Origin: Escherichia phage SF
Sequence record: MH359124
Length of the DNA: 64,000 nucleotides
Reading direction: 5' to 3' (one strand)
The position numbers and the translations under genes were made by a program. Positions 6,446 to 31,770 of this stretch are shown in pieces (the stretch's first letter is position 1; each line of letters starts with the position of its first letter). The notes below the pieces were generated by a model, which was not told where the DNA came from, did no database searches, and saw only the letters and a list, made by a program, of their open reading frames with translations.

Positions 6446-6739
6446 CTATTTTATAAAGACTTTTGACGAGGCCTGAGAAACAGTATCCCCGCATGAAATT
6501 GGGTCGGCCATTTGAACGGCCTTTTTACCGGTGACGTATACTTTAGATGTACGAGGTTCAGTAACACCTCCATGAGTCTCGTATGGTTTTTTAATTTCTG
6601 TATGAGGTGTTATTTGGTCTCCTGCCACAAGAACAGGAATACCGCCGGTGAACACTTTAGATTGGGAAGCATTTATTACAGTAGGAGGCCATGCTTCATG
6701 ACCTGATGTAACGCACTTGTCGTAACTTAAGCCAGACAT
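6446..6739 (-). CDS. 5.4: PAAR-repeat spike tip protein gp5.4
   Basis: Internal Met start [21 protein letters not shown]; 97 aa; matches T4 gp5.4. Confidence 0.8.
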
Positions 6740-6741
6740 TT

Positions 6742-7257
6742 TCACGGCCTCACATAAACATAGTTTCGTAATTGTTGAGCCCATTTGCTCCAATTTCCTA
6801 CTATAGTTTTTGTATAAACCTTAGTAAGAGTTTTTTGTACTGGAGCCGGTGGAGGTTCCGTACCAGAGTCACTTCTAGAACCGCCTGATGAACTTTCTTC
6901 TTGGTAATTATAAATCATTTCAACCGTATAACTAAACACTTTACGAAGATTCTGAGGAGCTCTCCACAAATATAACTGTGTGGATTCATCTTTTGGTAAA
7001 TCGTCCCATGAAGATGCGGTTTTAAAATCGTCATTTAATCGGTATTTCAATGCATCCGAAGAAAAGCTAAACACACTTTCATATGTTCCATATAAACGAT
7101 TACCATCTACCGTAATGCCTTGTGTCGGTTCATAATCTGTTATATTTATTGACACTAAAGTTTCGGTTGTTTCTAACTGTGGAGTAAAAAGGACGTCAAT
7201 AGACGCCCCTTCCATGTCTTCTCCTAAGTCGGTATTTAAAGGAAGTATTTGTGCCAT
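6742..7257 (-). CDS. 5.1: gp5.1-like baseplate-associated protein
   Basis: 171 aa ORF between gp5 and gp5.4 as in T4; name by position. Confidence 0.55.
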
Positions 7258-7260
7258 ATA

Positions 7261-8994
7261 TTACCCAATATCAATACGAGATCCGTCAACAGTGTATTGT
7301 CCTGAAGCTATTGAGCTCATTGTAGACATTGTCTCTGACCAATCCCCGGCAACAGTCATATCAACATTACCATTAACAGTCCATTTAACGTTTCCGTTGA
7401 CGGTGTAATCATGATTCCCTTCGACCTGAGTTTTAGCATCGCCTTTAACAAGAATATCTGCGTTTCCATCAACAACTATTTTGATATTGCCCTTAACGTA
7501 AAGAGTTCCATCGCCTTCAACAGTTTTAGATTGGTTACCACGAATAAAGATTGTGTCATTGCCGTCTATTTGATGGAGGCGGTCTGCCATGTTATAATAT
7601 ATTTCGTTAGCACCAACGTTAACAAGTTTATCACCGGAAATCAAGAAGTTCCCATCACCATTAGTGATGTCAAAAAGGTCTTCTACAGTTTTACGAGTGC
7701 GACGACCGGACGGAGAAACTTCCTCATATGACCCTGTTGGATGAACTAAGCGATAACGTTCGTTACCTGGAGTGTCGTCAAACTCTTGGATATGACCGCT
7801 TTCTGTTTCCATAGCGTGAACATACGGGTATTCACCACGATAACTTGATTCCGGTTCTTTAAAAAGGATACGCGAATCTAACGGAACAGGAGGACCGGCT
7901 GGGTCTTCTGGATCTGTATTTCTAGTAACTAAATCGGCACCAACTCCCGGTGAAGGCGGTGTTTTAACAGGAACACCATATGATTCCATGTTACCAGTTA
8001 AAATAATTGTTGTTACACGTGAAGCACGCCCTTTAGTCTGTTGGAACCATAACGAATCGCGTCCAGATTTGTATGCGGTTTTCCAATCACCTGCGGCCAT
8101 TGCTTTAAGCATAGTATTGAATTTTGCTACACCACCAACGCCCATCTGGAAGCACATGTTTTCTAATGCCATTTGGCGAGATCTGTTCATTTTAGCATAA
8201 ACAGGACCTACTTTAGAATTAGAACGAATGTCTTTCTGCATCTTAGCAAGGTCCTTCTCAAATAACGCTGTTGCTTCTTCTAACGTAATAGTTCCCGGAT
8301 TTCCTGTTACTTCACGCCCTACTTGATCAGATAACAATTTATTAATCCGAGACATATCTCGGGTTTTTTCCATTACGATAAGGTGTCCAATACCTACTGT
8401 AGGATATCCGAGATGGTCCCAATACACTTTATCACGAAGACCTTCGTCACGACGTAACATTTCTGTTATTGTAAAATTAGGGTCATCATCTTCTGGAATA
8501 TTTGCTAAATCTGTATCATCTGGGTTTATACCATAATCTAAGTTGTTATCTTGAATTACGTTAGAGTTCGAATAATAACCAGCTTCACCACCTTGGTTTA
8601 GTACGTTCGTATCATTACCTAAACGTCGCGGATACTGACCTGTCGGGTCTGAAAAACCTTCAAGTCTATTAGGCTTTTCACGTACTATTCCGCCGTATGT
8701 ACCAAGTACAATCCCGTTTGTTTTCCATTTGTCTAAGAAATGACCATATACTCGAGTTCCTTCAACAGGACCTGTAACAGAACCACCAATACCAGACATT
8801 GATGCAGACGTAATAGGTTGAATAACAGTCATCCATGGAAGTTTTTCTGTAGGAATACCTTGTACGTCACCTTGTGCTCTCTGTGCTGGATGAAGACCAA
8901 CGACTCGAACTCGAACTCGCCCTTGTTTTAATGGGTCCATTCTGTCCTCGACAACGCCCACGAACCAATTAAGGCTACTGCTAATCATTTCCAT
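7261..8994 (-). CDS. 5: baseplate hub subunit and tail lysozyme gp5
   Basis: 577 aa; N-terminus MEMISSSLNWFVGVVEDRMDP and central T4-lysozyme-like domain (LRDKVYWDHLGYPTVGIGH); C-terminal beta-helix VxGxxxx repeats. Confidence 0.95.
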   Translation of the reverse strand: MEMISSSLNWFVGVVEDRMDPLKQGRVRVRVVGLHPAQRAQGDVQGIPTEKLPWMTVIQPITSASMSGIGGSVTGPVEGTRVYGHFLDKWKTNGIVLGTYGGIVREKPNRLEGFSDPTGQYPRRLGNDTNVLNQGGEAGYYSNSNVIQDNNLDYGINPDDTDLANIPEDDDPNFTITEMLRRDEGLRDKVYWDHLGYPTVGIGHLIVMEKTRDMSRINKLLSDQVGREVTGNPGTITLEEATALFEKDLAKMQKDIRSNSKVGPVYAKMNRSRQMALENMCFQMGVGGVAKFNTMLKAMAAGDWKTAYKSGRDSLWFQQTKGRASRVTTIILTGNMESYGVPVKTPPSPGVGADLVTRNTDPEDPAGPPVPLDSRILFKEPESSYRGEYPYVHAMETESGHIQEFDDTPGNERYRLVHPTGSYEEVSPSGRRTRKTVEDLFDITNGDGNFLISGDKLVNVGANEIYYNMADRLHQIDGNDTIFIRGNQSKTVEGDGTLYVKGNIKIVVDGNADILVKGDAKTQVEGNHDYTVNGNVKWTVNGNVDMTVAGDWSETMSTMSSIASGQYTVDGSRIDIG

Positions 8995-15288: not shown

Positions 15289-15362
15289 GGCCCTGTAGCT
15301 CAACGGTTAGCAGCAGTCCCCTCATAAGGGAAAGGTTACCAGTTCGAATCTGGTCTGGGTCA
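15289..15362 (+). tRNA. tRNA with anticodon CAT (Met or lysidine-modified Ile)
   Basis: Hand fold: acceptor GGCCCTG/CTGGGTC (one mismatch, one GU), D-loop with GG, anticodon loop CTCATAA, T-arm ACCAG-TTCGAAT-CTGGT. Confidence 0.7.
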
Positions 15363-15368
15363 TATATT

Positions 15369-15445
<77 letters not shown>

Positions 15446-28557: not shown

Positions 28558-29016
28558 ATGACTATCAATTCAGACGTTTTTATCCGCCGTAATAAACTCC
28601 GTCGAATCTTTGAAACGGAGTTCCGCAAAATAAATGCTGGTATAAAAGATGCTGCAAAGTCTCTTGGACTACCAGGCTTTCATATCAAGTATTCTCAACA
28701 TCTCTTAGATCGTGCTATCCAGAGAGAAATAGATGAGAATTACGTTTTTGAATTATTTCGTAAAGTAAAAAATCATGTTAAAGAAGTTGCAGAATTTTTA
28801 TCAATGCCTGCACGTCCAGATGTTGATGAAGATTTTGTCGAAGGTGTCGAATATCGCCCAGGCCGTTTAGAAATAACTGACGGAAATCTTTGGTTAGGAC
28901 TTACAGTTTGTCGCGAAAATCCGGCATTCAAAATGAAGACTCTCCAATGCAGAATGGCTATTATTAACAGTAAACGACTACCAGGAAAAGCTTCTAAAGC
29001 AGTGATTAAAATCTAG
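28558..29016 (+). CDS. regB: RegB site-specific endoribonuclease
   Basis: MTINSDVFIRRNKLRR...YSQHLLDRAIQREIDE...; matches T4 RegB (152 aa). Confidence 0.9.
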   Translation: MTINSDVFIRRNKLRRIFETEFRKINAGIKDAAKSLGLPGFHIKYSQHLLDRAIQREIDENYVFELFRKVKNHVKEVAEFLSMPARPDVDEDFVEGVEYRPGRLEITDGNLWLGLTVCRENPAFKMKTLQCRMAIINSKRLPGKASKAVIKI

Positions 29017-29024
29017 AGGTAAAC

Positions 29025-29567
29025 ATGAGAAAAGCACTACTCGCTGGTCTATTTGCTCTTTCATTATCAGCACATAGCTCCGAGCATACTTTTAGTAATG
29101 TCCAACTCGATAACTTGAATTATGCTTATCAGTTTGGGGAACAGTTTTCTAAGGACGGAAAATTTAAAACGCATGAAAATATGCATAAGAAAGGACTTGG
29201 ATACATAATGGCCGCAATACTATGGCAGGAATCATCTGCCGGTATTAATCTTAAAGATAAGAAAGGTCACCATGCGTATGGAATGTTCCAAAATTATCTA
29301 CCAACAATGAAGGCAAGAATTAACCAGCTTGGTTATAATATGTCTGATGCCCAAATTAAGAAAATGCTATCTAAGCGGTCTAATTCAGCCAGATGGGCTT
29401 ATATCGAATTTTCTTATTGGTTAAATATACATAACGGGGATATAAGAAAAGCTATATCCTCATATAATGCGGGATGGAAGACAAGTGCTGGAAGTAAATA
29501 TGCTTCTGAAGTCCTAGAAAAGGCTAATTACCTTAAATCAAATAAACTACTGGAAATAAAAGAATGA
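29025..29567 (+). CDS. secreted SLT-domain lytic transglycosylase-like protein
   Basis: N-terminal signal peptide MRKALLAGLFALSLSAHS; ES...GMFQ and SYNAGW motifs. Confidence 0.6.
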   Translation: MRKALLAGLFALSLSAHSSEHTFSNVQLDNLNYAYQFGEQFSKDGKFKTHENMHKKGLGYIMAAILWQESSAGINLKDKKGHHAYGMFQNYLPTMKARINQLGYNMSDAQIKKMLSKRSNSARWAYIEFSYWLNIHNGDIRKAISSYNAGWKTSAGSKYASEVLEKANYLKSNKLLEIKE

Positions 29568-29911
29568 CCAAAATGTTGGCTTTAATAGTTGGCTTGGTTT
29601 CATTTAACACTCTTGCTAATACTACATATACTGATGTAACGGAGTATACAAACAGAACGGCGTCTGATTATTGTGGTAAAAGTCAAGAGTGTAAAGTAGA
29701 TTTTTCACAAAAATTGTTATATGCATATAAAGACGGAGAAAAAGATGGGGCGTCTAGTAGGTTCAAGGCGTCTACCTTAATTAAAAGATACTATAAAAAA
29801 TGGCAAATATTAGAATGCTCGGTGGCGGAACCTAAAGATAAGGCAGCATGCAATTCTATGGTGGACCGTCTAGTTGACTCTTATACTAGAGGACTTGCAG
29901 CAAGTGATTAA
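29564..29911 (+). CDS. small secreted/periplasmic protein
   Basis: Signal peptide MTKMLALIVGLVSFNTLA; 115 aa. Confidence 0.55.
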   Translation: MTKMLALIVGLVSFNTLANTTYTDVTEYTNRTASDYCGKSQECKVDFSQKLLYAYKDGEKDGASSRFKASTLIKRYYKKWQILECSVAEPKDKAACNSMVDRLVDSYTRGLAASD

Positions 29912-30371
29912 AAACTATATCAAGGGCGATATTGTCGCCCTGTTTTCTAAAGGTAATAATATCGCTCACGGGTGTAATTGTTTTCATACAATGGGCGCTG
30001 GTGTGGCAGGACAATTAGCAAAGGCTTATCCAAAAATTCTGGAAGCCGATAAACTTCAAACCGAATTCGGAGACGAGTCTAAACTCGGGACTTATTCGGT
30101 TTATGAAAAATATTTTAAGACACATAAAGCTTATTGCTTTAATCTTTATACACAGTTTGAGCCTGGACCTAATTTTGAGTACTCTGCTTTAATGAATTGT
30201 ATAATAGAATTAAATGAATTCGGAAAGAATAAGATAACAAAACCTGTAATTTATATGCCAAGAATTGGTGCAGGTATCGGTGGTGGAAACTGGGATGTCA
30301 TCGAAGAGATTTTAGATACGTATTCCACTAAACTAGAAATTGTGATTGTTGATTGGGAACCATTATTATGA
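29874..30371 (+). CDS. macrodomain protein, TARG1/DarG-like putative ADP-ribosyl hydrolase
   Basis: IAHGCNCFHTMGAGVAGQ and PRIGAGIGGGNW resemble TARG1 motifs (AHCISEDCRMGAGIA, PRIGCGLDRL); start uncertain (TTG 29874 or GTG 29904). Confidence 0.6.
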   Translation: MTLILEDLQQVIKNYIKGDIVALFSKGNNIAHGCNCFHTMGAGVAGQLAKAYPKILEADKLQTEFGDESKLGTYSVYEKYFKTHKAYCFNLYTQFEPGPNFEYSALMNCIIELNEFGKNKITKPVIYMPRIGAGIGGGNWDVIEEILDTYSTKLEIVIVDWEPLL

Positions 30372-30580
30372 ATATACATTATCCACATCCATATGACCCA
30401 AAGAATAAGGCAGTAATTATTCGTCAATGGGAACGCATTTGTCGTACTAAATGTCCAATTAATAGTCCGCATGATGTAGATAAAGACTACATTGGAACAT
30501 TCGTTGAATATACCTTTATTGATAAGAAAGGTCGTAAACAACACGTAGAAGAATATTGCTTAAAGGTGACATGGTTATGA
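30368..30580 (+). CDS. hypothetical protein
   Basis: ATGA overlap start MNIHYPHPYD. Confidence 0.5.
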   Translation: MNIHYPHPYDPKNKAVIIRQWERICRTKCPINSPHDVDKDYIGTFVEYTFIDKKGRKQHVEEYCLKVTWL

Positions 30581-30762
30581 GTTTAAGTAAAGAACAAAAA
30601 GACCGACTGTTTTCTCTTATTCATGAAGTTATGGATAAAAACAATGAATTGGAAAAAGTTTGTGATGAATGCGGTCCTTTTAATACCGATGAATATGAAG
30701 AACTGTGTAAAGATTTCGACGATAAAGAACAAGAACTTATTGATTATATAAATTCCTTATGA
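30577..30762 (+). CDS. hypothetical acidic protein
   Basis: MSLSKEQKDRLFSLIHEV; paralog-like to next ORF. Confidence 0.5.
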   Translation: MSLSKEQKDRLFSLIHEVMDKNNELEKVCDECGPFNTDEYEELCKDFDDKEQELIDYINSL

Positions 30763-30947
30763 TTACTCGCGAACAAAAGAATGAAATACGATTTTTAATC
30801 AGCGAAATTATTAGTTTAGAACGAGATTTATCTTTTGAATTGGCTTCGGATTATGGAGATGCTGAAACATACTACGAATTAGTAAAATCTATCGATAAAG
30901 CTGAAAATGATTTAGAAACATATTTAGAAAATTTAACTAAGGACTAA
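30759..30947 (+). CDS. hypothetical acidic protein
   Basis: MITREQKNEIRFLISEII; similar pattern to previous ORF. Confidence 0.5.
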   Translation: MITREQKNEIRFLISEIISLERDLSFELASDYGDAETYYELVKSIDKAENDLETYLENLTKD

Positions 30948-30948
30948 G

Positions 30949-31530
30949 ATGGCGAGTTTAATTTTTACTTATGCAGCAATGAATGCTGGAAAATCTGCTT
31001 CTCTTTTGACTGCTGCACATAATTATAAAGAACGTGGCATGGGTGTATTAGTTCTTAAACCGGCTATTGATACTCGCGATTCAAAAGGTGAAATAGTCTC
31101 TCGTATTGGTATTCGTCAAGACGCCAATATAATTACAAAAGACATGGATATCTTTGAATTCTATAAATGGGCTGCAGCACAAAAGGATATTCATTGTGTA
31201 TTTGTTGACGAAGCTCAGTTCTTAACCACTGAAAAGGTGTATCAACTTAGTCGTATTGTTGACGTATACAATGTGCCGGTAATGGCATATGGACTACGAA
31301 CAGATTTTAAAGGTAATCTATTTGAAGGTTCTCAAGCATTAATGGCTATTGCCGATAAGCTTGTTGAACTTAAAGGTGTCTGTCATTGTGGTAAAAAGGC
31401 CACAATGGTAGCTAGAGTCACGGAAGACGGACTTCCAATTACAGATGGCAGTCAAATTGAAATTGGTGATACCGATAGATATGTGTCATTATGCCGGAAG
31501 CATTGGAATGATTTGACAGGGTTGTTATAA
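30949..31530 (+). CDS. tk: thymidine kinase
   Basis: 193 aa; P-loop AAMNAGKSA; C-terminal CHCGKKA zinc motif; matches T4 Tk. Confidence 0.92.
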   Translation: MASLIFTYAAMNAGKSASLLTAAHNYKERGMGVLVLKPAIDTRDSKGEIVSRIGIRQDANIITKDMDIFEFYKWAAAQKDIHCVFVDEAQFLTTEKVYQLSRIVDVYNVPVMAYGLRTDFKGNLFEGSQALMAIADKLVELKGVCHCGKKATMVARVTEDGLPITDGSQIEIGDTDRYVSLCRKHWNDLTGLL

Positions 31531-31557
31531 ATACTAATATCTAACCAAGAGGTATAT

Positions 31558-31770
31558 ATGCAGCAATTAAACGAAAGACAACTTCGTAATCTTACTGTAA
31601 CCCAATTGGATGAAATCCGAAGAGAATTAGGACATTCTATTTCTCATTTAAACGAGGATATCCGTCAAACTGGTTCTAAAGCTGATTATACACGCAAGCG
31701 CAAGCTGGAAAAATACCTCACAGATGTTAAGGCCGTCCAAAGGCGAAAAATAAATACTGGCCAAAATTAA
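31558..31770 (+). CDS. hypothetical protein
   Basis: 70 aa basic ORF. Confidence 0.5.

Follow-up and report, generated by a model that had tools for sequence, protein, structure and literature searches.

The Mosigvirus orthologue of T4 tk.4 encodes a predicted ALC1-like macrodomain protein with a glutamine-type active site

Macrodomain proteins that counter DNA ADP-ribosylation

Phage-encoded macrodomain proteins that counter the host DarTG2 system have been described in T4 and in PhiKZ, and both carry the name AdfM. In T4, the HIDEN-SEQ preprint reported tk.4 as the sole significant transposon match on a DarTG2-expressing host, and a clean knock-out of tk.4 makes T4 DarTG2-sensitive (bioRxiv 10.1101/2025.11.20.689424). 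The sensitisation of T4 delta-adfM was seen at 30 C in M9 glucose, and in the T4 screens described tk.4 was reported as significant with DarTG2 only. The same authors, who gave Tk.4 the name AdfM, point out that it resembles the M. tuberculosis DarG macrodomain, and on enzymatic removal of ADP-ribose by Tk.4 they go no further than 'seems likely'. T2 and T4 without adfA and adfN are still DarTG2-resistant, which predicts an additional (third) factor, and T5 is DarTG2-sensitive (PMC11825919). The PhiKZ protein gp104 is, like Tk.4, an orphan macrodomain that counters DarTG2; it removes ADP-ribose from TNTC DNA in vitro and is imported into the phage nucleus (Cell Rep 2026, PMC13309987). The Thoeris preprint and the CmdTAC paper mention macrodomains in unrelated contexts only.

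Among cellular macrodomain proteins, SCO6735 of Streptomyces coelicolor acts on DNA modified by DarT, from which it removes thymidine-linked ADP-ribose more quickly than DarG or TARG1 do; it also rescues E. coli from DarT, and it is inactive on guanosine-linked ADP-ribose (PMC9411070). Its activity is abolished by the substitution Q85A and nearly so by N27S. The mechanism proposed is water-mediated, with the Gln positioning the distal ribose, and the authors tie the high activity on DNA to a mobile loop that is five residues longer. A Gln at the position of the catalytic Lys is also found in ALC1 homologues (PMC9411070).

Both the gene described here and its role against DarTG2 were known before from T4, through the T4 annotation, the label 'macro domain protein' in GenBank and the preprint of November 2025. 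The points added by our analysis are a corrected start codon and an apparently Gln-type, SCO6735-like active site in the Tk.4 family.

The tk.4 locus and its start codon

The window, that is, the whole 64-kb stretch of DNA analysed, comes from a phage that by sequence belongs to Mosigvirus, the RB69-like group of T-even phages: over 29000-31600 it shares 98.6% identity with Escherichia phage HY126 and 98.5% with Shigella phage phi25-307. The original prediction placed a macrodomain gene in the regB-tk region, and the neighbours agree with this. Upstream are regB (28558-29016), vs.1 (29025-29567) and vs, annotated as valyl-tRNA synthetase modifier (29564-29911, + strand), the final 8 nt of which overlap the start of tk.4. 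Downstream are tk.3 (30368-30580, + strand; DUF7202), the ATG of which overlaps the tk.4 stop (ATGA), and tk (30949-31530). The tk.4 (adfM) coding sequence occupies 29904-30371 on the + strand, from a GTG start to a TGA stop at 30369-30371, and encodes a protein of 155 aa with a single predicted macrodomain. The order of the local gene string, regB-vs.1-vs-tk.4-tk.3-tk.2-tk.1-tk, is identical in T4. Between 29025 and 31530, vs.1, vs, tk.4, tk.3, tk.2 and tk.1 are linked by overlaps of 4 nt (ATGA) or 8 nt, and the gap between tk.1 and tk is 1 nt; judged from this layout, the vs.1-to-tk string is tightly translationally coupled. The T4 string has the same layout except at the start of tk.4, which in T4 is an ATG in a 4-nt ATGA overlap with vs and in the source phage a GTG in an 8-nt overlap. 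Scans for promoters and terminators around tk.4 gave a number of sites not above that in shuffled sequence.

The original prediction gave the gene a non-ATG start, TTG or GTG, overlapping the upstream gene. The ORF listing does contain a + strand ORF at 29874-30371 that starts with TTG, encodes 165 aa and overlaps the upstream ORF at 29564-29911. Its translation includes NNIAHGCNCFHTMGAGVAGQLAKAY and VIYMPRIGAGIGGGNWDVIEE, and the two motifs to which the prediction drew attention, IAHGCNCFHTMGAGVAGQ and PRIGAGIGGGNW, are present in it. The functional start is nevertheless almost certainly GTG 29904 (155 aa) rather than TTG 29874. GenBank relatives annotate the coding sequence from the codon homologous to this GTG, and in T4 the homologous codon is an ATG with an in-frame stop directly 5' of it, so that the T4 ORF cannot extend upstream. 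On these grounds the TTG was dropped as a start, while the non-ATG start in an overlap with vs was retained, as GTG with 8 nt, GTGATTAA. A Shine-Dalgarno-like GAGGA lies on the + strand at 29889-29893, 10 nt 5' of the GTG and within the 3' end of vs, and it aligns with a GAGGA in T4, T6, PYps32T and teqdroes.

The beginning of tk.4 also contains a perfect 8-bp hairpin, AGGGCGAT-ATT-GTCGCCCT, at 29923-29941, which lies 19 nt inside the coding sequence, with a T-run after it. In the predicted RNA fold of 29887-29949 the GAGGA pairs with GUUUUCU just 3' of the hairpin (dG -19.3, z -2.3). T4, T6, PYps32T and teqdroes have an identical inner hairpin, which is common to Tequatrovirus and Mosigvirus; the Kanagawavirus and Karamvirus homologues lack it, and there is therefore no covariation to support it. 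The hairpin could serve translational coupling or attenuation, or could be a coincidence of the coding sequence, and we do not count it as a demonstrated element.

Some features of the surrounding genes may be recorded here. The N-terminus of the vs product resembles a Sec-type signal peptide, MTKMLALIVGLVSFNTLA/NT, and the protein has four cysteines in common with T4 Vs, so that Vs looks like an exported, disulfide-bonded protein. Such predicted export fits poorly with the textbook role of Vs as the partner of a cytoplasmic enzyme. In T4, vs is conditionally required in minimal medium (bioRxiv 10.1101/2025.11.20.689424). The vs.1 product (29025-29567) also has a signal-like N-terminal sequence, MRKALLAGLFALSLSAHS, and its match to the SLT lytic transglycosylase domain is weak, with 18.5 bits lying below the threshold of 21.3; in one relative it is annotated as 'lytic transglycosylase protein'. 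The 64-kb window has only two tRNA genes, Met-CAT and Arg-TCT, at 15289-15445. RB69-like phages have few tRNA genes, and the T4 tRNA cluster is larger.

Fold class and active-site residues

The prediction of a macrodomain was borne out by profile, predicted structure and fold search, which agree. The protein matches Pfam Macro (PF01661) at 28.1 bits, against a gathering cut-off of 22, with residues 32-146 of the longer ORF covering profile positions 2-117 of 118, and it matches phrog_335, labelled 'phosphatase', with an E-value of 7e-67. Within the 64-kb window the family profile has exactly one match, at 216 bits. An AlphaFold2 model built from an alignment of 58 homologues, with the T4 sequence left out, has a pLDDT of 95.4 and a pTM of 0.90, and the predicted structure has the three-layer alpha/beta/alpha macro fold. 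Foldseek matches in the PDB were TARG1, Poa1p, DarG and BT1257, and a sequence-profile search of the PDB found BT1257 (4e-17), TARG1 (1.8e-16), SCO6735 (6e-15), Mtb DarG (9e-14) and Poa1p (8e-13). The nearest structural neighbours thus belong to the ALC1-like/TARG1-like class, apart from the MacroD, viral and PARG classes, and sequence and model together place the protein among the ALC1-like macrodomains (TARG1/DarG/Poa1p/BT1257). By tblastn it is found in 2,798 of 50,697 phage records from many genera, including T-even, Pseudomonas PAK_P-like, Vibrio, Acinetobacter, Erwinia and jumbo phages. Against T4 the gene has a dN/dS of 0.07, which shows strong purifying selection. Taken together, the Pfam and PHROG matches, the number of phage records and this dN/dS go far beyond chance.

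Active-site residues were compared in a MAFFT alignment of the source protein, T4 Tk.4, family members, BT1257, SCO6735, TARG1, two DarG macrodomains and PhiKZ gp104, beside HMMER profile alignments to TARG1 and BT1257. The TARG1 sequence in the MAFFT alignment agrees with the one printed in the HMMER alignment. An hhalign comparison of the family with PhiKZ gp104 had an unreliable gap around the catalytic strand, and the MAFFT and HMMER alignments were used instead. Conservation was counted over 58 family members. Loop 1, with the motif IAHGCNCFHTMGAGVAGQ (29961-30014, + strand, residues 20-37), contains H22, N25 (codon 29976-29978) and a G31-A32-G33 turn. H22 and N25 are each present in 57/58 members, and C26, G33 and A35 in all 58; N25 aligns with N27 of SCO6735 and with the conserved Asn of DarG. 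The strand 75-84 of the AlphaFold2 model ends in N80-L-Y82-T83-Q84 (30141-30155, + strand; Q84 codon 30153-30155), in which N80, Y82 and Q84 are invariant (58/58). The position of Q84 is that of K84 in TARG1, K80 in DarG (NFPTK), Q85 in SCO6735, a Gln in BT1257 and a Lys in gp104 (FPTK). Loop 2, the diphosphate-binding loop, has the motif PRIGAGIGGGNW (30258-30293, + strand, residues 119-130), with P119, I121, G122 and G124 invariant among the 58 members, and its G126 aligns with D125 of TARG1 and is Ala in 34 members and Gly in 24. From these alignments the active site appears to be Gln-type (Asn25/Gln84) and not Lys-type as in DarG and TARG1.

The description 'TARG1/DarG-like' in the original prediction therefore holds for the fold class and fails for family membership, given that an invariant Gln stands in place of the Lys and a Gly in place of the TARG1 Asp. 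Human TARG1 (OARD1/C6orf130) is the top Foldseek match (E 7e-10) and shares a PRIG-x-G...W loop with our protein. Its K84/D125 dyad corresponds here to Q84/G126 and the Ser of its loop 1 to the family Asn, and in the absence of the dyad the protein is not TARG1. The DarG macrodomain (T. aquaticus 5M31/5M3E, M. tuberculosis 5M3I) has the catalytic Lys80 where our protein has Gln. DarG also has a C-terminal DarT-binding domain and an adjacent darT, and the source protein, with its 155 aa and its neighbours vs and tk.3, has neither. The NCBIfam DarG model NF048014 gives it 31.9 bits against a cut-off of 250 bits, over profile positions 4-146 of 338, which is the macrodomain part only. A DarT neighbour was also sought beside two metagenomic relatives; none was found and the contexts look phage-like. 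On sequence, then, the protein is not a DarG, since it lacks the catalytic Lys, the DarT-binding domain and a darT neighbour and scores below the cut-off. The PADLOC DarG model scores gp104 at 132.9 bits, with the FPTK lysine, and the source protein at 33.2 bits, with TQ, which places the two proteins named AdfM, T4 Tk.4 and PhiKZ gp104, in different subfamilies, with gp104 as the genuinely DarG-like one by sequence.

The closer fit is to the Gln-type ALC1-like proteins SCO6735 (PDB 5E3B) and Bacteroides BT1257 (2FG1/2AFC), which are chromosomal, whereas the protein described here is phage-encoded. The N25/Q84 pair of the Tk.4 family matches N27/Q85 of SCO6735. The extra segment that follows the Gln in BT1257 and SCO6735 (GIYKD/GMKTG) is missing from the Tk.4 family, which thus has no five-residue longer mobile loop, and Gly23 stands here where SCO6735 has Val25. 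By these residues the fit to the SCO6735/BT1257 subclass is partial only, with the Asn/Gln pair and without the long loop. By analogy SCO6735 is nevertheless the best mechanistic precedent for Tk.4.

Anti-DarTG2 function and alternative readings

T4 Tk.4 (NP_049723, annotated as 'contains A1pp phosphatase motif') is 85% identical to the source protein over all 155 residues without gaps. The T4 gene lies at the same site between vs and tk.3 and encodes the same motifs, N25 and Q84 included; at residue 127 the source phage has Gly, which is the family consensus, and T4 has Lys. On this evidence the gene is the Mosigvirus orthologue of T4 tk.4 (adfM). The original prediction proposed that the protein could reverse the action of DarT, and this idea is both supported and already published, because deletion of the T4 orthologue results in DarTG2 sensitivity. 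A search of the first 86 kb of T5 with the family profile gave no Tk.4-family match; as a consistency check, this agrees with an anti-DarTG2 role, T5 being DarTG2-sensitive.

Further observations concern variation among the relatives of these phages. Some Tequatrovirus phages (PYps32T, teqdroes) have a tk.4 allele with about 58% protein identity to the source-phage/T4 type. In the comparison with T4 (locus positions 261-345), the first approximately 45 nt of their tk.4 and the end of vs are identical to T4, which suggests a recombination boundary inside tk.4, that is, mosaic macrodomain alleles. In the T4 clone T4_7t1 (OL964745.1), a lab-evolved mutant, tk.4 is annotated as two fragments of 62 and 59 codons (locus 373-748), which fits a gene that is dispensable where the host lacks DarTG2 but would also fit sequencing errors. 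The early region of T5 (locus 6648-8295) has two genes annotated as 'Sir2 (NAD-dependent deacetylase)', T5.102 and T5.105, which are NAD/ADP-ribose-linked genes in a phage that has no Tk.4-type macrodomain match in the 86 kb searched.

We consider it probable that the product of tk.4 is a single-domain macrodomain protein, made early and by coupled translation, that hydrolyses thymidine-linked ADP-ribose and so protects the phage from host DarTG2. Upon infection, DarT2 would modify single-stranded phage DNA, using NAD+ to add ADP-ribose to the thymidines of TNTC motifs, and this modification would block replication. The predicted macrodomain cleft of Tk.4, formed by loops 20-37 and 119-130, would bind the ADP-ribose, and the enzyme would then hydrolyse the bond between thymine and ribose, so that ADP-ribose is set free and the base is restored. 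This reaction probably needs no lysine and resembles that of SCO6735, unlike the Lys-dependent chemistry of DarG and TARG1, with Gln84, held by Asn25, placing the distal ribose for water-mediated cleavage. Both the hydrolysis of thymidine-linked ADP-ribose by the source-phage protein and the roles given to Q84 and N25 are drawn by analogy with SCO6735, and the DarTG2 phenotype is that of T4 and not of a Mosigvirus. The argument combines the T4 knock-out phenotype and the enzymology and mutagenesis of SCO6735, which come from the literature, with what is established here: the gene, its start, fold, class and residue pattern, its orthology to T4 tk.4 in a syntenic position, and the purifying selection on it. 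Against it are the absence of the DarG/TARG1 Lys, the absence of the five-residue longer mobile loop and the Gly in place of Val25 of SCO6735. The ALC1 macrodomain is a non-catalytic binder. Since ALC1 homologues also have Gln, the Gln alone is no proof of catalysis.

A broader role as an ADP-ribose eraser is rather unlikely, though plausible by analogy with SCO6735 and TARG1. Such an enzyme would remove ADP-ribose not only from thymidines of DNA but also from RNA uracils, Glu/Asp-modified proteins or ADP-ribose-based immune signals, and DarTG2 would be one target among several. SCO6735 and TARG1 do also act on Glu/Asp-ADP-ribosylated proteins and on uracil-linked ADP-ribose in RNA, and the spread of the family over very diverse phages fits a widely useful function. 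The T4 screens point the other way, tk.4 having been reported as significant with DarTG2 alone.

That Tk.4 neutralises DarT2 mainly by binding DarT2 or ADP-ribosylated DNA, with catalysis unneeded, seems to us improbable. The catalytically dead variants SCO6735 Q85A, DarG K80A and TARG1 K84A do inhibit DarT in vitro, SCO6735 most strongly (PMC9411070), the Tk.4 family has no Lys nucleophile, and the T4 phenotype is compatible with binding as well as with catalysis. However, the protein has no C-terminal DarT-binding domain, its 155 aa matching only the macrodomain part of the DarG profile, and N25 and Q84, the counterparts of residues essential in SCO6735, are nearly or fully invariant. Moreover, ADP-ribosylated DNA that is bound without removal of the adduct would leave the replication block in place.

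Very little favours a metabolic enzyme, either an ADP-ribose-1''-phosphate phosphatase or an O-acetyl-ADP-ribose deacetylase. The labels 'phosphatase', 'A1pp phosphatase motif' and 'O-acetyl-ADP-ribose deacetylase' are carried over from domain names and not from tests. Yeast Poa1p, an ADP-ribose-1''-phosphate phosphatase (6LFQ), acts on a different substrate and has T-S at the strand end where our protein has T-Q. At the residues probed in Poa1p, H22 is present (H23 in Poa1p), T29 aligns with S30 and G126 lies at F152; this last position, which carries the substitution in the Poa1p F152A structure, is occupied by Gly or Ala in the Tk.4 family. To our knowledge T-even tRNA repair yields no Appr>p, and there is thus no evident source of a phosphatase substrate. 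A metabolic role would also leave the DarTG2-specific phenotype of T4 tk.4 unexplained.

The other role put forward in the original prediction, reversal or tuning of the ADP-ribosylation of host proteins by the phage's own Alt, ModA and ModB, found no support beyond co-occurrence in T-even genomes and is close to negligible as an explanation: family members are frequent in phages that are not T-even, arginine is the residue modified by Alt and Mod while ALC1-like enzymes act on Glu/Asp esters and pyrimidine bases, and Arg-specific macrodomains such as MavL belong to another group.

We speculate, tentatively, that the Tk.4-type AdfM is not a captured DarG but an independent branch within the ALC1-like class, lysine-less and of the Asn/Gln type, whose mobile loop is short, whose cleavage of thymidine-linked ADP-ribose is water-mediated, and which perhaps, as SCO6735 and TARG1 do, also erases ADP-ribose from RNA uracils or Glu/Asp-modified proteins. 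To the known gene and role our results add little, and their residual value is mechanistic, lying in the Asn/Gln pair and the absence of the DarG/TARG1 lysine. The published statement that Tk.4 acts 'analogously' as a DarG homologue hides a different active site, as the family has no Lys and has instead the SCO6735-type Asn/Gln. T-even phages would have an orphan predicted ADP-ribose eraser against DarTG2 beside AdfA and AdfN against DarTG1, which would show how strongly these phages have been shaped by DNA ADP-ribosylation. If our speculation is true, a lysine-less branch with broad erasure would be a general counter to ADP-ribosylating toxins rather than one specific to DarT2, and T4 Tk.4 and PhiKZ gp104 would have reached the same counter-defence through different catalytic solutions.
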